Below are positions 5,902-62,640 of a stretch of 64,000 bases of DNA, piece by piece. Below the pieces are notes generated by a model. It ran no database searches. It had not been told where the DNA came from and worked only from the letters and a program-made list of their open reading frames with translations. Origin of the DNA: Octopus vulgaris (taxonomy: Eukaryota); assembly GCA_951406725.2 (NCBI GenBank), contig OX597816.1:74214001-74278000 (forward strand). Reading direction: 5' to 3'. Positions within the stretch are counted from its first letter, which is position 1, and every line of letters begins with the position of its first letter. The position numbers were made by a program, and so were the translations under genes.

Positions 5902-6061
5902 ACAGATGCATATATATGTATATATATATATACACACATACGACCATCCATGTTTGTTTTCATTCGGTTTCCTTGTATGTCTCCACTTTGACCTACCAAC
6001 TTTGACCCTCCGCAAATCCCAAATTATATTTTGGTTCGCGGGAGCAACTGCCTTTCGAAGT

Positions 6062-6114
6062 TTCATATTGTCGTTCAATGCTCGAAATGAGGAGTAGATG
6101 GACAGCCGACAACT
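6062..6114 (+). ncRNA. Permuted hammerhead-like motif, 3'-truncated by a TA tract
   Basis: UUCA-UA-UUGUCG ... CUC-GAAA-UGAG ... CGACAA-CU, then (TA)n. Confidence 0.55.
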
Positions 6115-6289
6115 TATATATATATATATATATATGTACATATATGTATGCATATATGCATATGTGTATGTGTGTGTGTGTGTGTGAGTAGATAAACTTA
6201 CTTGGAAAAGGATGCGTGGCGTTCGATCAAATAATAATATACAAATATATGCATATATACATACATATATGTACATACTATTTATGTAT

Positions 6290-11912: not shown

Positions 11913-13094
11913 GAAAGAAGGTTTGAAAATGCAATTCAAAAGATGTTTATTTACTTTACCGGTTTCACTCTTTGGGAAAAAGATTGTCAAAAGTAACATG
12001 TAGAAGTTTGGTTGCGTTAATTATTGGTTGTTACAAATTGCTACGTTACATATATACAGTCTTTGGTAGCAGGGACATGTTAAGGACATAAAAAAGTTCA
12101 ACAAGTTCCTTAAAATATTGGGCACAAAAGATTACTACATAAATAATCGTTCTCAAGGACATGCTTAAGATAGTTTCCAGAAGGAATTGATATTGGTATT
12201 GGTATTGTATCTGTATATTCAAACATGCACAGAATATTGGTTGACACAGAGTACTACAATCCATATAAATATACATGCTTTGGTGACAGGAGCATGTTGA
12301 GAATATAAAAAAGTTTAACAAGCTCATTGAAATAATGGGCACAAAAAATTACAGCAAATATATTATACATTCTGAAGATAATTTCCAGAAGGAATTATTA
12401 AAAAAGTTCAGTATACACGTACAGAATATTATGAGTTCAAAAAGATTTACATTATAATAGTAGTGAAGCTAAAACTGACCTGTCCGATATAGACTGTCAA
12501 AGCAGCCTATGTAAAAATCCTCTCCGTCCGAGAGCTTCACTACTATTATAATGTAAATCTTTTTGAACTCATAATATTCTGTACGTGTATACTGAACTTT
12601 TTTAATAATTCCTTCTGGAAATTATCTTCAGAATGTATAATATATTTGCTGTAATTTTTTGTGCCCATTATTTCAATGAGCTTGTTAAACTTTTTTATAT
12701 TCTCAACATACTCTTGTCACCAAAGCATGTATATTTATATGGATTGTAATACTCTGTGTCAACCAATATTCTGTGCATGTTTGAATATACAGATACAATA
12801 CCAATACCAATATCAATTCCTTCTGGAAACTATTTTAAGCATGTCCTTGAGAACGATTATTTATGTAGTAATTTTTTGTGCCCAATATTTTAAGGAACTT
12901 GTTGAACTTTTTTATGTCCTTAACATGTCCCTGTTACCAAAGACTGTATGTATGTAATATAGCAATTTGTAACAACCAATAATTAACGCAACCAAACTTC
13001 TACATGTTACTTTTGACAATCTTTTTCCAAAGAGTGAAACCGGTAAAGTAAATAAACATCTTTTGAATTGCATTTTCAAACCTTCTTTCGTATA
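11908..13094. repeat. Large inverted repeat (~560-bp arms, 62-bp spacer) inside (TA)n
   Basis: 11911-12470 is the reverse complement of 12533-13091 with scattered substitutions; mirror ORFs 12046-12342(-) and 12661-12957(+); a related end sequence occurs at 6561-6652. Confidence 0.95.
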
Positions 13095-13504: not shown

Positions 13505-14140
13505 ATGCATATACACATGCATATAAGGGTATAAGACGTCAAAACAAAAACATGGAAAACGAATTTTTTCGAACAACGAAAGAAACAAATAGAGAAACAA
13601 GACAGGCAACATAAAGAACATTCTCTTCATCAGTTGTCCCCTGTTTTATCTACTCCGCGTTTTGAACTTAGGGACAAGACGCGACTCCGTTAAAAGAGTC
13701 GTTCCTGCAAAGCAAATTTTAAAAATTGGAGATTTGCGGAGGGTTAAAGTGGTGAAAAAAAACCCAGAACAGTTAGAACAAAACAGTAAAAACAAACTGT
13801 AAGGGCTGCTAAGCCATAACGAGGTGAAGTGGTGAACACTGGAGAAACGAGCTTTGAGATGAGACAGGCAAAGCACGTCTTCGCTTTAGGAAGGAAGTGG
13901 AAGAAAGATAGATAGCCGTTGGTCACATGTGAGCAACAAGAGTCAAGGAAGAAGATGGAGGGAGAGAGGGGAACGGTGAAGGGGAGAGGAGAGAATTAGA
14001 GAAAGGGCGGGAGAGAAAAACAGAAAAGAAGAACAAGAGAGGTAGATAGAATAGAGGTAGGTTGTAGAGTGCGCATCGGAATTATTACGATAAAACTAAC
14101 TTGGAAATCGATGCGTGGCGTTCGATCTTATAATAATATA
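13505..14140 (-). mobile_element. ~640-bp non-coding element carrying a permuted hammerhead
   Basis: Same 5' motif (gaacgccacgcatc...ttccaagt.agtttat) and 3' motif (gacgtc.tgtaccc) as 49695-50335; flanked by TA tracts. Confidence 0.7.
13623..13683 (-). ncRNA. Permuted hammerhead-like motif (G12-to-A change in this copy)
   Basis: CGCG-UC-UUGUCCCU-AAG-UUC-AAAA-CGCG-GAGUAGAUAAAACA-GGGGACAA-CUGAUGA-A-GAG. Confidence 0.65.
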
Positions 14141-14169: not shown

Positions 14170-14470
14170 TACATATATATGTATATATACATACATATTT
14201 GGGTACAGGACATCAAAAAACACGTGAACAAAATGAGAAACGAGAACATGAGTACCAAAAACATGGTAAGAAACAACTAGAGAAACGAGTCAAGCAACAT
14301 AAAGAAACATTCCCTTCATCAGTTATTTTGTTCTCACTGTCCTGTTTTTGTTACCACTTTAACCCTCCGCAAATCCCAAATTTGTTTAATTTGCTTTGCG
14401 GGAACGACTGTTTTAGCGAAGTCGCGTTTTGTCCCTACGTTCGAAACGCGGAGTAGATAAAACAGGGGAC
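14170..14470. mobile_element. Internally inverted copy of the permuted-hammerhead element
   Basis: 14325-14470(+) ends ...CAGGGGAC; 14324-14170(-) begins AACUGAUGAAGGG. Confidence 0.65.
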
Positions 14471-17150: not shown

Positions 17151-17599
17151 CACAAATGACTGGAAGAGGGTACAGTCGATTTAATTGGTCCTCAAACTAT
17201 ACTTTATAGATGACCACCGAAGACTAAAAAGAACAAGGTCGATTCTGTTAATATTTCAACACAAAACTTGAGATGCATCAGTATTTCGCCCTCTAATCCA
17301 CTGTTTCCGCCATTTTGCTTAGATGGCTAAAAACCTGTAGACAAGTATGAATAAAATTTCTGGAAGTGAAATAGTAGCAGTAACGTCATGCGAAACAGTT
17401 AACCTTAATAGCATAACGTAATGATAATTGTGCAGACGTGCATGGCTGACTGTACATGAAAGAATGGGAAATATTGTTGATATAACTTTAATGACTTTTA
17501 ACTAACGATGAACTTTACATTCGTGTGTGTGTGTAATATAAGTATATATTGTAGAACGTATATTTTATATATACATACATAAATACGTACGTAATCTGG

Positions 17600-19622
17600 T
17601 TGACTGACCAAGCAGTTCCCGTTGGGCTTCCCAAAAAGAAGAAACACAAGTCCTGGGTGATGACGAAGGTTAAACGAGAACTTCGACTCAGAGATATTGC
17701 TTGGGCTGAATTCAAAAATCTAGATTCGACTGCGGCTTTTGAGGTGTACAAAACTCAACGAGACCGAGCCGTGAAAATTGAAAAGGAAGAGCGCTTCAGA
17801 TATGAATACAGAATCGCGGCAAACGCCAGTCGCAATCCAAAAACCTTCTTTGTCCATGTCCAACGGAATTCCCGCTTGAACAACCAAATTGCAACGTTGG
17901 TAGACTCAACAGGCGTATCGATTGAGGACCCTTATCAACAGAGTCAATTATTTTCCGAGGCTTTTTCAACAATTGTCAAACAAGATGATGGTCGTGAACC
18001 CCCTCCAGTTGATAGATCGGTACCTCCAACGCCTAGATTGGTCATCACTCGGGACGAAGTCGAACGCGTTATTCAAGGCCTCGATGTCAACAAAGGTCAC
18101 GGCCCTGACGGCATACACCCACAGGTTATCAAAGCGTTGGCTCTGGTCATCTGCGAACCTTTAACACTTCTATTCAATATGTCATTGGCGACGGGTGTTA
18201 TACCTGCGGACTGGAGAACAGCGATAATCTGCCCTATTTTCAAGAAAGGGAGCCGCGAAGACCCGCTTAACTGCCGACCGGTTTCCCTTACTTCAATATT
18301 CAGCAAGATGTTCGAAACCATCCTTAAGAAAAGTATGTTGCTCCACCTCCAAAACACAGCCTCTATCTCTGATTCCCAACACGGCTTCGTGCCGAAGAGA
18401 TCATGCTTCACCAACTTACTGGTAATGGAAGAATTGGTGACGCGTATCCTGGATGATGGTGATGCTGTGGACATCGTTTTATTGGACTTTGCCAAAGCTT
18501 TTGACTCGGTTAACCACCGCCTATTACTTGTCAAGCTTCAAGCATATAGTTTCCATCCGGATATTGTACGATGGGTTGGTGCCTTCCTCTCAGATCGCTC
18601 CTTCCAAGTCCAAGTTCACTGTCCGACGTCTCCAGTGCGAGCAGTGGCGTGCCTCAGGGTTCAGTGCTCGGGCCCTTATTGTTTTTAGTCTTCATAAATG
18701 ACTTGCCCGACGACCTCACGCAACACACCCTTCTATTTGCCGATGATGTCAAATTGGTCGCTCCTCGCGGTGATATAGATGATCTTCGTCGATGCCTCCA
18801 CCAAGTTTGGAGATGGACTAACGAATGGGACCTGTGTCTGAACGTGTCAAAGTGCTGTCATCTGCCTGTTGGCTCTTCTCCTGCAACTCAACTTGATTTC
18901 GAGCCGGGTCGTCTGCTGCTGGAGAGGACCGACCAGGTAAAGGACCTGGGTATCTTGGTGGATTCTTCTTTTTCGCCTTCGGCCCAGTGCATCCATGCTG
19001 CCAACAAAGCACGCGGAGTTCTGTTTTTGATTCGACGGTCATTCGGAATGCTCACAGCAGCCATATTCCTACCGCTATATGTCACGCTGGTGAGACCCAT
19101 ATTGGAGTACGGGATTCAAGCCTCTTCTCCTTATCTCCTCAAAGACGTACATCATCTCGAAAGAGTCCAGAAGCTGGCTACCTGCACGGTTCTTGATCTC
19201 AAGCATTTGTCTTATGAAGAAAGGCTGAAGACGCTCGACCTTTATTCTCTAGAAAAACGACGACGCCGTGGTGATCTCATTCTTGCTCACAACATCATAA
19301 GCGGAAAGTGTAACCTCTCGAAAGAGCTGTTCTTCACTCCTGCTTCAGAGCGTCGGCTGCGGAGTCACTCCGAAAAGCTCTATCTGCGACGATTTCATCT
19401 CAATCGAAGGAGAGGGGCTTTCTCCGTCCGGGTTGCGGATCCGTGGAATAAGCTGCCGGACGAGATAGTGAAGATGCCGACGACCGCTCGGTTCAAAGTC
19501 TCTCTTGACCAGAAATGGCCTGAACTCTTTGCATGAACACCCTCCCTGTACATAACTCCATGCCCCCCTACATGGCCTTGCTTTTTGCTTTTTGAGCCAA
19601 AAAAATTAACTTAACTCAACTT
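17600..19622 (+). mobile_element. 5'-truncated CR1/L2-group LINE, ORF2 reverse transcriptase with one frameshift near 18620
   Basis: GPDGI, RPVSLTSIFSK, QHGF, DFAKAFDSV, GVPQGSVLGPLLFLVFINDL, LFADD, FSVRVADPWNKLP; short 3' UTR with (aactt)n-like tail. Confidence 0.95.
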
Positions 19623-29717: not shown

Positions 29718-29901
29718 TATATAATTAGGGCTTAGTAAAATAAATTACTTTGCCACATACTGAACCGTATTTTAGTAATTTATTTTACTAAGCCCTAATT
29801 ATATAATGTAATATTTTGAATTCGCCTTAAATGGTCCTTTTACATACTGAACACTACTTGGTGAAATTGATTAATAACTAATTAATTTTACCCTCAATTG
29901 T

Positions 29902-29957
<56 letters not shown>

Positions 29958-30050
29958 ACAATTGAGGGTAAAATTAATTAGTTATTAATCAATTTCACCA
30001 AGTAGTGTTCAGTATGTAAAAGGACCATTTAAGGCGAATTCAAAATATTA
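29718..30050. repeat. AT-rich fold-back element plus inverted duplication across a TA tract
   Basis: gggcttagtaaaataaattact / agtaatttattttactaagccc; 29809-29905 is mirrored at 29954-30050; same family at 49419-49670. Confidence 0.85.
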
Positions 30051-42451: not shown

Positions 42452-42869
42452 CACAAAAAAAAACAAAAGACGAAGACAGGGGTGTAGACAACAGACAGAT
42501 GTATTAGTATAACGCCCGGGAAGTGAAAAAGTCTTTAACGTTTCGAGCCTATGCTCTTTCACAAAAAGGAACACAGAAAGAAACAAAGAGAGAAAATAAA
42601 GAATGTGTAGTGGCTAGCGATCTAGGAATAGAAAAAAATGGGACAAGAACGCAAAGCATCCAAACAGATGATACAAAAAAGGGACAGACGGGTCATTCAG
42701 AGTTTTCTTTCCTCAGTCGAGTTGCAATTTCGGCTGGTTATACTCGAAATTGCTCCAATCTGGCCAGCCCCAAAGAAAAACTAAGCTAACAGCACTAGAT
42801 TCCTTGGAAAGCAACGAGTGTATACGAAAACAAGGACGGAAAAAACGGAGAAATGGTACACAAAAAAAG

Positions 42870-48265: not shown

Positions 48266-48641
48266 GACAGGCCTCTTTCAGTTTCCGTTTACCAAATCCA
48301 CTTATAAGACTTTGGTCGGCCCGAGAAGACACTTGCCCAAGGTGCCACGCTGTGGGACTGAACCCGGAACCATGTGCTTGGTAAGCAAGCTACTTACCAC
48401 ACAGCCACCCTTCCGCATATATATCATGTGCTTGGTAAGCAAGCTACTTACCACACAGCCACCCTTCCGCATATATATATATATATATATATGCGGAAGG
48501 GTGGCTGTGTGGTAAGTAGCTTGCTTACCAAGCACATGGTTCCGGGTTCAGTCCCACAGCGTGGCACCTTGGGCAAGTGTCTTCTCGGGCCGACCAAAGT
48601 CTTATAAGTGGATTTGGTAAACGGAAACTGAAAGAGGCCTG

Positions 48642-49898: not shown

Positions 49899-50335
49899 GC
49901 TCACACATGACCATCGTTCATCTTTCTTTTCCTACACGGACGTTCAAAGGACTGGACGTTTTTTCCCCTCTCTCTTCTCTCTTTTCTCTTTTCAAAGAAA
50001 ATATTTCTCCCAGTGTTCACTATTTTCCTCTCGTCTTGGTCTAACGATCGTCCATGTTTATTTTCGTTCGGTTTCCTTGTATGTCTCCATTTTCATGTTT
50101 TTGTTCCCAACTTTGAACCTCCATAAATCCTAAATTTTATTTTAGAATTTATGGGAGCAACTGTCTTTGAAGACTCATATTGTCTTTGAATGCTCGAAAT
50201 GAGGAGTAGATAGACAGCCGATAACTGATGAGGCGTGCTTTCTTTGTGCTTGTCCCGTTTTCCAGTTTTTTCGCATTGTTTATATATTTCCAACCGTTTG
50301 AACAGTTGGTGACGTCCTGTACCTATATATGCATA
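49695..50335 (+). mobile_element. ~640-bp non-coding element carrying a permuted hammerhead (50174-50236)
   Basis: CUCA-UA-UUGUC...AUGCUC-GAAA-UGAG-GAGUAG...GAUAA-CUGAUGA-GGCGU; same termini as 13505-14140. Confidence 0.7.
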
Positions 50336-53261: not shown

Positions 53262-56035
53262 CAGGCCCGTAGCTACGGGGTGGGGGGCTATGGGGTGTTC
53301 GGCACCCCCAGTTAGAATCTCAGCCCCTCCACCCCAGTATGAGAATTTGTTTTATCCACTTTTGAAAGAAAAAGAAAACAAAAACAAAAGAAATGACAGT
53401 TACTGATTAAGAAATTGGGAGAATTGTGCAATAAGTAATAAAAAAAAAGAAAAATTAAATATGTGAAGTTTCAAATTCAAAACCACTGAACCTGCCAAAT
53501 ATTATGAAGAGATTATCTCCCTTGTAAATTCTTGATCTGCCATGCAAGCAATATCTGAAGTCGCTAAAGATGCAATAAATTGAATTTCTTTTGATTTAGT
53601 AGTTAGTGCTATGAAAATATGGATAGATTAGAGCTGTTTGTTGTAGCTGTAATTGTTGTCGCAGAATTGGCTGCTGACCCGGTCATCAACTGTGGGTTGA
53701 ATTTAAGGACTGGCTGACGCTGGGTCAGTTGTTGTGGTGGTGGTGATGCTCGTGATGGCGACGTCAGTGCTGGTGATTGTCCTTGTTGCTGTTGAAAAGT
53801 AGGTGAAGAATTGTGGCCGTAGTTAGAGATTTATGGTAGTAAACGCATCACTACACACACATATATATATATATAATAGTGTAATGAATAAAATATATGC
53901 ATACATACATACATATATGTACGTACCTACATCTAATATACATGCATATATAAATATATATACGTGAGTACAGGACACCACAAATAGACGTAGAACTCAA
54001 CGAGAAACGAAAACGTAAAAACAAGCATGGAACGGACCATTTTTTTACAACGAAAAAACAGAGTACGAGACAAACTACACAAGGAAAAAACCCCTTCATC
54101 AGCTGTCCCTAGTTCAACTCCAGCGTGTTTCGAAGGTGAGGACAGAACACGACTCGTCGAACTAACCCTTCCTGCGAAAGAATTAAATAAAATTACTTCG
54201 CAGAGGGGTAAAAACAAGGAAAGAAAAAAATGTGACACAAACAGGACGTAAAAACGATACAAATAAAATTACAAAATAAAATACAAAATAAAAATACAAT
54301 TACAAAAAATACAAAAACAGAAATAAAAACAAACAAGAAAACAAACGAAGAGGGCCTTTTTTTGGCCTAGACGAGGAAGATTCTAAGAGCGTAAGAAAAA
54401 CCGTGTGTTTACAGTTAGGAGGCCGCAGGCAAAAGGAAGTAGTCAGCCGGCTGTGAGAGAGATGGGGAGGAGTGAGTGAGAGAGAGAGAGAGGAAGACAA
54501 GTGGCTGAGAGAGAGATGAGGAGGAGTGGGAGAGAGAGAGATAGGGAAAGAAGGGAAGGTCAGAGACGGACATTAAAAAGTCTAGTCAGAGAAGATTATT
54601 TATTCGCGAAAAAGGAGAGAAAATTTTTGAAATTTCCCAAAATATACTACATTCAGGAAGTATTTTACAAGTGAGAACTTTCACTGAATAATTTTTCTTA
54701 CACTTTGAACAAAGTTAATACTGAAATTATTTTGTGTTTAACTAAAAAACCATAACTTTGAAGAAATTGAAAAAAAAATTGCTTGAACCGAAATCTCTTT
54801 CGAGTTTAATTTTAAAATACATAAATTTTAAGAAATTGTTACTCAATTAATTATTGCGAATATCGGTGCCCAAAAATAATGAATCACAACCGAAAAAGAG
54901 AACTGAAGCAATCATTGCTGAATTTCCTATCAGATTCATCTAATAATGCTAAGCAGAAGAGAATTGCAAACGAAGTTTCGCAGCTCAAGGGAGGTCTTGC
55001 AAAGTCTTTGACACCCTCGTTGGACGCTCTCGGACAGGTCGACTGCCAAACCAGTGCAGCCAGTTCTAGCAAAGTTTGATACAAAAATTTATGGAAATCA
55101 GAGACGTGACTTCTCATCAAGCAGGTATACTAATCGTTTATGGTTAGAGTATTCTCTTTCAAAGAAAGCCTTGTTTTGTTTTGCTTGTCGGCAATTAAAT
55201 ACTTCTGCTCAAGCTGATACTTGTTTTAGTAAAAATGGATATTCTAATTGGCATTATGCAAAAGAAAAAAAAAACAAAGGTTTAAATAAGCACACAAACT
55301 CTGCATCCCATATCTAAGCTATGTTGACATGGAAGGAACGCCAACAATGTTTATCCATAACATCCATGTCTTCAATCTTGCAAAATGATCAGTTGAGCAA
55401 AAATCGTTATTATATCAGTTCCATTGTTGATATTGTTCATTTAATTTGTGCAAACGAATTGCCTTTTCGAGGAAACGAAAATGAAGCTTTTCGGGAACTT
55501 TATTCGGAAGATGATACGTAACCTTGTGGTCTTTATTTGAAATTATTCCAGTACACATTAGAGAAAGACTCAAAGCTAATGGAATGTTACAGCATGATTC
55601 CAAAAAATGCGACCTACACCTCCGCAGCAATGCAAAACGAAATCATCGAATTGTTGATAAGACACACTGTCAGCCTCGTGCTCGATGTTTATTTGAAATT
55701 ATATAAAAATAATGTTTAAAGATTTGGCTGTTATCTCTAGCATGTAGAATGTGCTTGTTGAAAATAATTTTTTTAATATTGGAGTCGATACATTCGACTA
55801 AAAATTCTTTGAGGTGATGCCCCAGCATGGCCTCAGTTTAATGTTTGCAACAAGTAAAATGAAAATAAAAACGAAATATATCAGAAGTTTTGCCCAGGAT
55901 AGGCGTCAAGAAATGTGAAAAAATAAACGGAAAAAATAACCGAAAAATATAAGCATGGGGCTTTTGTCCACTTTCACACTTTTGTCCGTACCCCTGTTCA
56001 GCACCCCCAGTTGCAATCGGCTGGCTACGTGGCTG
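53262..56035 (+). mobile_element. Degenerate hAT transposon with nested insertions; transposase relic ~55050-55700 (TTF zinc finger/DUF4371-like)
   Basis: TIRs caggcccgtagc / gctacgtggctg; flanks gcatgaat / gtatgaag; WLEYSLSKKALFCFAC, ELPFRG, NATYTSAAMQNEII. Confidence 0.75.
54091..54151 (-). ncRNA. Permuted hammerhead-like motif with all core nucleotides intact
   Basis: CGUG-UU-CUGUCCU-CAC-CUUC-GAAA-CACG-CUGGAGUUGAACUA-GGGACAG-CUGAUGA-A-GGGG. Confidence 0.7.
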
Positions 56036-62392: not shown

Positions 62393-62640
62393 AAGAATAA
62401 AATGTTTTGAATAACACAACAATGCACTATAATAACAACAATGAACTATAATAACTGTTGTAATTTAATCTGATATAATATTTCGGAATATAAAAATTCC
62501 TTCTTCAGATATCCATCAATTCCTAGGGATATCTGAAGAAAGAATTTTCATATTCGGAAATATCATACCAGACTATGGATGATTAAATTACAACAGTTAT
62601 TATAGTCCACTGTTGTGTTATTCAAAACACATTATTCTTT
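62393..62640. mobile_element. Inverted-repeat element with two back-to-back minimal hammerheads (62472-62513 minus, 62528-62569 plus)
   Basis: Minus: GAUAU-CUGAAGA-A-GGAAU-UUUUAU-AUUCC-GAAA-UA-UU-AUAUC; the plus copy is more diverged. Confidence 0.75.

Follow-up and report, generated by a model that had tools for sequence, protein, structure and literature searches.

Introduction

Hammerhead ribozymes with a non-circular order of their strands have been described (Eckert et al., 2023; PMC10085705). In type SGC, of which HRIMA-1 and a variant were validated for cleavage, stems I and II are linked by about 3 nt and one U is bulged out after A9. This type was reported from metatranscriptomes and from no genome of a known organism. 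Type CSG was previously known from two metagenomic sequences; its block C is intact and it opens after block G. That study took it explicitly for granted that CUGANGA cannot be parted from its stem II strand.

In the Naiads, a group of Penelope-like retrotransposons, canonical hammerheads were found to be lacking and only unexplained motifs, HHR_core and HHR_half_core, were flagged (Craig et al., 2021; PMC8557442). This lack was read as a sign that Penelope-like elements need no hammerhead. Other Penelope-like elements carry minimal type I hammerheads (PMC4209133); these and the ones of non-LTR retrozymes (bioRxiv 10.64898/2026.07.22.740005) have the canonical circular order and a short stem III, unlike the octopus motif described below; as in this motif, each terminal repeat or tandem unit has one ribozyme and a bulge at the 5' end of stem II is tolerated. 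The words SGC and pseudoknot were not found in the 2026 preprint, and a search of the literature on Naiads, cephalopods and other Penelope-like elements yielded no paper on non-circular or split-core hammerheads.

Hammerhead-like copies in the window

The window analysed is a stretch of 64,000 nt from Octopus vulgaris, in which an earlier note had listed five copies of a hammerhead with strands in the order A, C, B. All five are present at the positions given there, with stems I and III as described and the order S-G-C; the cyclic order C-G-S of types I, II and III is not found. A scan for both cores together with stems I and III gave three sites in the window; in 60 shuffles the mean was 0.03. 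The note was thus right that the order is non-circular, but this order was not new, as it is that of type SGC (Eckert et al., 2023; PMC10085705). Its statement that models of types I to III miss the motif also held: among the Rfam matches listed for the window (150 of 262) there was no hammerhead, only microsatellite-driven miRNA matches below the gathering scores.

Only two of the five copies, at 54091 and 50174, have a whole core. The former is intact and lies on the minus strand in a non-autonomous Penelope-like repeat of subfamily A (53861..54562), which ends in a TA-rich tract and was delimited by the extent common to other genomic copies and by the anatomy of the family. The latter, of subfamily C (50100..50260, plus strand), has a decayed tail and helix W and mismatches in stem I. 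In the copy at 13623 (subfamily B, 13594..13758, minus strand) G12 is changed to A and it is therefore predicted to be dead. The copies at 14423 (subfamily B, 14348..14470, plus strand) and 6062 (C/D-like, 5996..6117, plus strand) stop, respectively, before CUGAUGA and before CUGAUGA is complete; the first of these adjoins an inverted 3' piece of the same subfamily that contains CUGAUGA (14282..14327, minus strand). A sixth copy, absent from the earlier list, belongs to the distant family P (42704..42813, minus strand) and has the same architecture with X3 deleted. Genome-wide, about 15,000 matches to the core pattern were found versus 159 in controls.

A core probably opened between A9 and G10.1

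By covariation, the motif almost certainly contains the helices W, H, II, X, I and III. In the intact copy, read 5' to 3' on the minus strand, the layout begins with W5 (54204..54208), a far-upstream strand that pairs with the bases directly after A9, followed by hairpin H (54172..54203), which takes up all of the space between W5 and G10.1 and leaves no linker bases, and by the 5'-most strand of stem II, G10.1 to 10.5 (54167..54171, helix Z). After X5 (54156..54165), one strand of the helix that connects stem I to stem II, block S comprises the 5' strand of stem III with U16.1 (54147..54151), H17 and the 5' strand of stem I, 1.1 to 1.7 (54139..54145). H17 is a U in a GUU triplet (54146), with the cut predicted on its 3' side by analogy with hammerheads and from the pile-up of 5' ends. 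A short linker leads to block G, with the 11.5 to C11.1 strand of stem II (54132..54136), G12-A13-A14-A15.1 (54128..54131) and the 3' strand of stem III (54124..54127). Then X3 (54109..54118), the 3' strand of stem I (54103..54109), C3-U4-G5-A6-U7-G8-A9 (54096..54102) and the tail W3 (54091..54095) follow. The one unpaired H after U16.1, the covariation of stems I and III and the short covalent connection of stem I to stem II all agree with the earlier drawing. The 14-16-nt linker of that drawing is not single-stranded: it is X3 and pairs with the 5' flank as helix X; and what was drawn as a stem II strand is W3, which pairs with W5.

In 192 copies the downstream stem II of the earlier note was Watson-Crick in 301 of 951 cells (655 with G-U), whereas the upstream partner was so in 825 of 950 (869 with G-U). 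These counts overstate the number of independent events because the copies are related; as independent units one can count about six lineages in the octopus genome and three other animals. For the covariation tests near-consensus rows were chosen. Lineage N was left out of these tests because its rows stood out of register upstream in the alignment of the whole set, and helix X because from group to group its register is shifted by one column; group F (four copies) was dropped as a mixed cluster, and group N2 is contaminated with N copies. The upstream stem II was paired in 97.9% of 95 cells, three of its five pairs had changed on both sides, none of 500 shuffles scored as high and slid registers reached only 27-44%. 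RNAalifold, unaided, picked W, H and the upstream stem II. The interval between W5 and G10.1 is a single hairpin without linker in seven of eight group consensuses, two variants of the subfamily B consensus being treated separately, and within B one pair was kept as C:G or G:C in 21 of 26 scorable copies (p 0.0017). In family P, of unrelated sequence, five to six of the six upstream pairs were present in 12 of the 13 untruncated copies among 20, and more than two downstream pairs in none of 34 rows. The 10.1-11.1 pair closes stem II with the upstream strand and fails to do so with the downstream one.

Stems I and III adjoin the core and show covariation. Stems I and II are connected at their outer ends by helix X, of 5-10 bp across the consensuses and 10 bp in subfamily A (in C and D its computed register is uncertain). 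Next to the core, helix W has only 3-4 bp in N and B, and it starts with two mismatches in most P2 copies. The core letters C3 U4 G5 A6 N7 G8 A9, G12 A13 A14 A15.1, U16.1 and H17 are found in all eight group consensuses and stay fixed while these are 53-85% identical; G never occurs at H17. Within the core N7 alone varies, in family P, and it is a free position of the hammerhead core. Intact cores were counted in 32/35 A, 19/34 B, 31/42 C and 29/36 N copies, and the core letters are also present in P rows. A register pairing G8 and A9 with the 11.x strand, inspected by eye, is possible in subfamily A and lost in C.

The strand before GAAA has its partner upstream, and the partner of the bases that follow CUGAUGA lies further upstream still, so that a four-way junction interrupts the backbone between A9 and G10.1. 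In this junction W would stack with H, and stem II would rest on the core, so that G10.1-C11.1 would still lie on top of the G12-A9 pair. The whole is best explained, with good confidence, by a hammerhead in non-circular order that also has its core interrupted between A9 and G10.1.

The motif shares with type SGC the order of the three blocks, all core letters, the short link between stems I and II and a helix that joins the strand preceding stem I to the strand following 10.x; X would correspond to the joining helix of the published SGC and CSG ribozymes. In SGC, block C is unbroken, with at most one bulged base, and the stem II strand follows CUGAUGA. In the octopus motif no stem II strand follows CUGANGA within 0-2 nt; the 10.x strand comes from upstream of block S, and helices W and H are inserted. 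This core split differs from published SGC, while the order of blocks was already known. Type CSG, known from two sequences (Eckert et al., 2023), has the same cyclic order of blocks, and the split-core form is this cycle opened inside block C. Whereas SGC came from metatranscriptomes, the octopus motif occurs in thousands of copies in animal retrotransposons.

Lineage N and the Naiads of other animals

Lineage N is the 3' UTR of a Penelope-like element already published, the Octopus Naiad: it matches by eye the 3' ends of Naiad_Obim and Naiad_Ovul, and a C-terminal remnant of reverse transcriptase precedes it at 14 of 30 loci and at 7 of 20. This remnant gave a weak match to RVT_1 (E 2e-4, below the Pfam cut-off), and a separate Pfam run on the C-terminal pieces gave no meaningful match; the N-terminal GIY-YIG endonuclease is taken from the published consensus (PMC8557442). 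In lineage N the motif is thus shown to sit near the 3' end of Naiads, and it appears to be the ribozyme that they were reported to lack, with cutting as a prediction.

When the 3' ends of 25 published Naiads were viewed by eye, non-circular hammerheads were seen in 12, and no motif was resolved in the other 13. The split-core SGC form occurs in coral, acanthocephalan, squid and octopus Naiads, and full CSG motifs in those of nematodes and a spider (seven records). Read by eye, the W-H-II-X layout recurs in other letters in the coral and the acanthocephalan Naiads, as it does, though with mismatches, in squid.

Non-autonomous tandem units

The motif is also carried by non-autonomous tandem units of about 800 nt, in subfamilies A-F and family P. 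These are non-coding units of roughly 750-830 nt with one ribozyme each; in one locus (L011) tandem copies are 816 nt apart, and among 100 places four same-strand pairs were separated by 744-832 nt. No open reading frame attached to A-F or P was found in flanks of 1.5-2.5 kb, and the pieces of reverse transcriptase near some copies belong to other LINEs or lie on the opposite strand. A-F and P share the ribozyme layout, TA-rich ends, truncation, inversions and tandems. Naiads likewise have (TA)n targets, 5' truncation and inverted and tandem copies (PMC8557442), but A-F and P differ from them in being non-autonomous and in their 3' ends; they may derive from Naiads. Their mobilization by Naiads is probable.

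5' ends of copies and the predicted cut

From the analogy with hammerheads we strongly expect the RNA to cut after H17. The 5' ends of genomic copies pile up just 3' of this site, which is an indirect sign of cleavage in vivo. In family A, 19 of 57 copies at risk have their 5' end at -2 to +23; upstream the count was 2 of 38, downstream 3 of 60. For A, B, C and N pooled the count was 29/107 at the site versus 5/78 upstream (p 2e-4) and 8/115 downstream (+24 to +49); without A it was 10/50 versus 3/40, short of significance (p 0.13). In family P, 6 of 20 copies begin at -3 to +13. Most of these ends sit 5-23 nt 3' of the predicted site and off the site itself; together they span about 25 nt, and several are inversion junctions. 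A reverse transcriptase might either run off the cut end or read through an uncut or ligated junction.

Other readings of the same helices

An active form that is a strand-swapped dimer keeps all helices, and we regard it as unlikely though the most serious of the alternatives. Helix X, an internal loop, stem III and a big terminal loop would form a rod, whose loop would dock on the junction of a second copy, as tandem copies or paired terminal repeats would provide. Both strands of X continue into stem III, and the AGUA/GAA loop in B, C and D, which we take to be a loop E-like motif, would favour a straight rod. The nested fold predicted as W, H, X and III leaves the S-G loop free; by energy, the 126-nt copy alone folds modestly better than shuffles (z -1.7), pseudoknots being beyond the method. 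Tandem copies do exist, as given above, and other hammerheads of Penelope-like elements are thought to work as dimers (PMC4209133). On the other hand, the published SGC and CSG ribozymes, which have this joining helix too, were cut during transcription from single-copy templates (PMC10085705). As both X strands enter stem III via an internal loop, a monomer would need a sharp bend. A dimer would alter the folding route and not the assignment as a ribozyme.

It is improbable that the fold was derived from a hammerhead and kept, without catalysis, as a signal for protein recognition or packaging, at which the reverse transcriptase stalls or switches template and so produces the pile-up. The spread of the ends over about 25 nt, with inversion junctions among them, would suit this idea, and a precedent test of a break between A9 and G10.1 was not found in the literature. 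Yet all catalytic letters stay the same from lineage to lineage and from phylum to phylum, N7 and H17 alone varying and within the allowed set, and the edge of the pile-up is at the predicted cut and not where the enzyme first runs into the structure, at its 3' edge (8/115 at +24 to +49).

A plain type SGC as drawn in the earlier note, with a bulge after A9, a short downstream stem II and W plus the upstream stem II as an off state, is very improbable: a U is bulged at the same spot in published SGC (PMC10085705), G-C and G-U are possible at the first two downstream positions in all eight A-N groups and the fourth pair is standard in 7/8 consensuses with a covariation score above 499 of 500 shuffles, but the downstream stem II is 72.6% paired, is equalled by 41 of 500 shuffles and surpassed by a slid register (85.3%), has just two pairs in N, is impossible in family P and also, as judged by eye, in the Naiads of coral, acanthocephalans and squid, where the tails pair with W5 instead, and the re-coded published SGC descriptors gave no match in the window and two in 384 loci. 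With or without the bulge, this stem II was rejected by covariation and by the pairing in family P.

Implications for Naiad biology

In the split-core hammerhead that we favour, stem I would belong entirely to the 3' product, and the two products would be clamped together by III, X, II and W (about 25 bp in the 54091 copy). Products that are held together would allow the cutting of tandem transcripts into unit-length RNAs, whose ends re-form the ribozyme and can ligate to circles; for circle formation itself we consider the chances even.

Taken more widely, we lean slightly towards the reading that Naiads of several phyla use active non-circular hammerheads, and that in the form of cnidarians, acanthocephalans and cephalopods a four-way junction splits the catalytic core between A9 and G10.1, which places this form outside the six permutations regarded as possible. 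It would work as a cut-and-rejoin unit, since its products stay clamped together, making circular templates, and would be present in more than ten thousand copies in this genome. The split core breaks the assumed tie between CUGANGA and its stem II strand, and ribozyme searches therefore need a fourth block. If true, this would answer the gap left by Craig et al., who found no canonical hammerhead in Naiads, and would extend the range of non-circular RNA permutations, so far a few hundred sequences from metatranscriptomes, to animal genomes, in thousands of copies.

Strand order and copies

The earlier note had described five copies of a hammerhead with its strands in the order A-C-B, a topology with which it was not familiar among natural hammerheads. 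All five stretches were present in the window at the positions described. The core was whole in two of them, whereas one carried G12 replaced by A and two ended before CUGAUGA. Eckert et al. (2023; PMC10085705) split the hammerhead into the blocks S (III-U-H-I), G (11.x-GAAA-III) and C (I-CUGANGA-stem II) and reported the S-G-C order, to which A-C-B corresponds, as natural and cleaving. Since SGC was already published, the provision that the note made for prior literature applies to the strand order, which is known. In the published SGC hammerheads about 3 nt link stem I to stem II, a further helix connects the outer ends of the two stems, and CUGANGA is assumed never to lie more than 1-2 bases from its stems (PMC10085705). 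Their descriptors, re-coded here, gave no site in the window and two in 384 loci fetched from the genome. A scan of the window for the two core motifs in the order S-G-C, together with stems I and III, gave three sites (54102, 50225 and 42716), whereas 60 shuffles averaged 0.03.

The noted copies belong to one large repeat family. The pattern for its subfamilies A-F matched 8055 times in the genome searched (2.8 Gb, 227 contigs) versus 156 times for the reversed control, a count that is somewhat high because, by eye, 24 of the 30 loci examined first proved to be genuine members. The patterns for lineage N, a Naiad 3' UTR, and for a distant family P gave 724 and 7131 matches (control, 3 and 0); N was present at 16 of the 20 loci checked. 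In other repeats, at loci L094, L096 and L118, CUGAUGA precedes a stem and then CGAAA, which is the canonical order, and it seems that this genome also has ordinary hammerheads resembling type I.

Stem II is formed with an upstream strand

From the fetched loci 196 distinct copies were collected and then grouped; 192 copies in eight groups were used, group F being dropped as mixed and group N2 including some N copies. Each group consensus was searched for the best upstream partner of the strand preceding GAAA and of the tail following A9. The pre-GAAA strand had a perfect partner of 5-6 bp located 20-25 nt upstream of U16.1 in the group consensuses (GAAGG:CCUUC in A, A2 and E; GAGCA:UGCUC in C and D; GACACC:GGUGUC in N). 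In subfamily B the fourth pair occurs as C:G and G:C, matched in 21 of 26 scorable copies (p 0.0017), which represents one evolutionary event, with other letters in 8 of 34 copies. The post-A9 tail pairs with a segment further upstream than the stem II partner, forming helix W (CCCCU:AGGGG; GACCCU:AGGGUC; CCA:UGG in N, with the first pair flipped from U-A to A-U). Exactly one hairpin, H, with zero linker bases separates the 5' strand of W from the stem II strand in seven of the eight groups as run. The long stretch from stem III to stem I, described as a linker in the earlier note, forms helix X with the segment that follows the upstream strand of stem II. In B, C and D an AGUA faces GAA in the loop between X and stem III, which we take to resemble a loop E motif; it does not occur in A or N.

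Scored over 19 real A-E copies close to their consensus, the helices W, H, II, III and I together had 93.6% of cells paired, and 17 of the 29 pairs showed changes in both partners; none of 500 shuffles reached this score and slid registers gave 37-45%. Stems I and III of the earlier note hold within this set. Its stem II, taken from the strand after CUGAUGA, does not: it was 72.6% paired, was reached by 41 of 500 shuffles and paired better in a slid register, although its covariation score nonetheless beat 499 of 500 shuffles. The upstream stem II alone was 97.9% paired in the same copies. In unselected copies its outer three pairs were standard in 511 of 569 cells, versus 289 of 569 for the downstream alternative, and RNAalifold predicts W, H and the upstream stem II unaided. 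The real structure differs from the drawing in the note and from published SGC.

Under the split-core reading, helix X connects the strand preceding stem I with the one following 10.x, just as the joining helix does in the published SGC and CSG ribozymes; this is a consistency check that the earlier model lacked. CSG hammerheads are known from two sequences (PMC10085705), and the octopus RNA represents the same cycle, opened inside block C. As a structure the split-core hammerhead is well supported; that it is a ribozyme is probable.

An independent lineage

Family P, noticed in repeat flanks (L365-L384), is a distant second repeat family with the same split-core hammerhead. Its copy in the window (42704-42813, minus strand, site 42716) misses the 3' strand of X. 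The letters differ in every helix while the layout is the same. In a sample of 20 copies taken in genome order 13 were untruncated, 12 of which form 5-6 of the six upstream stem II pairs. Helix W measures 5-7 bp, most P2 copies having two mismatches at its start; P1 and P2 show covariation in stem I, N7 is A, G or U, and H here too runs up to the base preceding G10.1. A downstream stem II exceeded two pairs in none of 34 rows (one row duplicated). The predicted hammerhead in P is possible only with a split core.

Relation to Naiad elements

The 5' ends of the copies are ragged, whereas their 3' ends are fixed and lie in TA-rich tracts. Copies have inverted neighbours and occur as head-to-tail units of about 750-830 nt with no reading frame. 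This anatomy fits Penelope-like elements. Such elements can hold introns; a GTAAGT resembling a 5' splice site lies near the start of units of A, B, C and P (L011:375, L073, L041 and L231).

Craig et al. (2021; PMC8557442) described the (TA)n-targeting Naiad clade as being without canonical hammerheads and left HHR_core and HHR_half_core motifs in Naiads unexplained. Lineage N represents the 3' ends of the published Naiad_Obim and Naiad_Ovul (PMC8557442). It lay 0.5-1.4 kb downstream of a C-terminal reverse transcriptase (RT) remnant in 14 of the 30 loci selected with that piece of protein, and 0.7-2.4 kb downstream in 7 of 20 weaker loci; one longer remnant contained RT motifs and a weak RVT_1 match. 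A-F and P gave no attached reading frame, and their link to Naiads is inferred because they share the ribozyme and the manner of insertion.

Of the 54 Naiad consensuses (PMC8557442, File S5), 25 were inspected over their final 600 nt, by eye only. A split-core SGC with W, H, II and X was recognized in Obim, Ovul, the coral Amil (W 8, II 6, X 10 bp), the acanthocephalan Plae (W 5, H 8, II 6, X 9) and, with mismatches, the squid Esco. Full CSG motifs, with GUC or GUU triplets and a joining helix of 9-14 bp, were seen in the nematode Naiads Parc, 1-3_Nbra, Hcon and Hpol and in the spider Smim. Naiad_Ptep and Naiad_Lpol have S-G-C order, stems I and III and hairpins between the blocks; stem II was not made out, and they are possibly further variants. 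In 11 of these 25 3' ends no hammerhead was made out.

Besides these elements, the window contains a LINE-type reverse transcriptase at 17555-19536 (plus strand; two frames split by a frameshift), near-identical pieces of which occur in L208, L210 and L215. At 29817-30042 and 48433-48530 (TA)n tracts form the centres of long, near-perfect inverted repeats, and further inverted duplications with identical contexts on both strands lie at 12297-12402 (reverse near 12601-12706) and 62458-62583.

5' ends near the predicted cut

If RT sometimes copies RNA already cut after H17, the base before the predicted cut, copies are expected to start at or just 3' of the site. Copies were sampled by the 3' motif alone in genome order (the first 70 of 865 A and the first 20 each of 919 C, 423 B and 211 N). 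In A, 19 of 57 copies reaching +23 had their 5' end within -2 to +23, compared with 2/38 in the next 26 nt upstream and 3/60 downstream. Pooled A, B, C and N gave 29/107 at the site versus 5/78 upstream (p 2e-4) and 8/115 downstream (p 6e-5); B, C and N without A gave 10/50 versus 3/40 upstream (p 0.13). Among 20 P copies, whose selection required sequence beyond about +13, six begin between -3 and +13 and one at -12. A few 5' ends fell on the site to within one or two bases of TA microhomology; the majority lay 5-23 nt inside and would need some trimming. Template switching at the structure could also produce such ends. An RT stall is expected at the 3' edge of the structure, where no excess of ends was seen. 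The excess is taken as an indirect sign of the predicted cleavage. About two thirds of the copies read through the site, which implies that uncut or rejoined templates must also serve.

Proposed fold and possible function

Judged by the known hammerhead structure, losing no more than the A9-G10.1 link would leave the G12-A9 pair, the A9 phosphate and G10.1 all in place. Bulges of one base are frequent at this step (PMC4209133) and allowed by the published SGC descriptor (PMC10085705), and engineered ribozymes retain cleavage when stem II is shortened to a single pair or a linker (PMC544870). In the octopus RNA A9 would run into W, the 5' strand of W straight into H, H into G10.1 and C11.1 into G12, a connectivity that would make a four-way junction, in which W would stack on H and the core on stem II. 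The folded RNA may be a monomer or else a dimer with swapped strands.

In the literature covered, with few subscription papers among it (PMC3088659, PMC13725137, PMC10162972 and bioRxiv 10.64898/2026.07.22.740005 included), we found neither non-circular hammerheads in any animal genome or retroelement, nor one as the missing Naiad ribozyme, nor a core opened between A9 and G10.1.

Once the RNA is cut, stem I would lie entirely within the 3' product, and III, X, II and W would hold the products together. A unit excised from a tandem transcript would have ends that rebuild the ribozyme and could ligate into a circle, which could be the template for partial tandem insertions.
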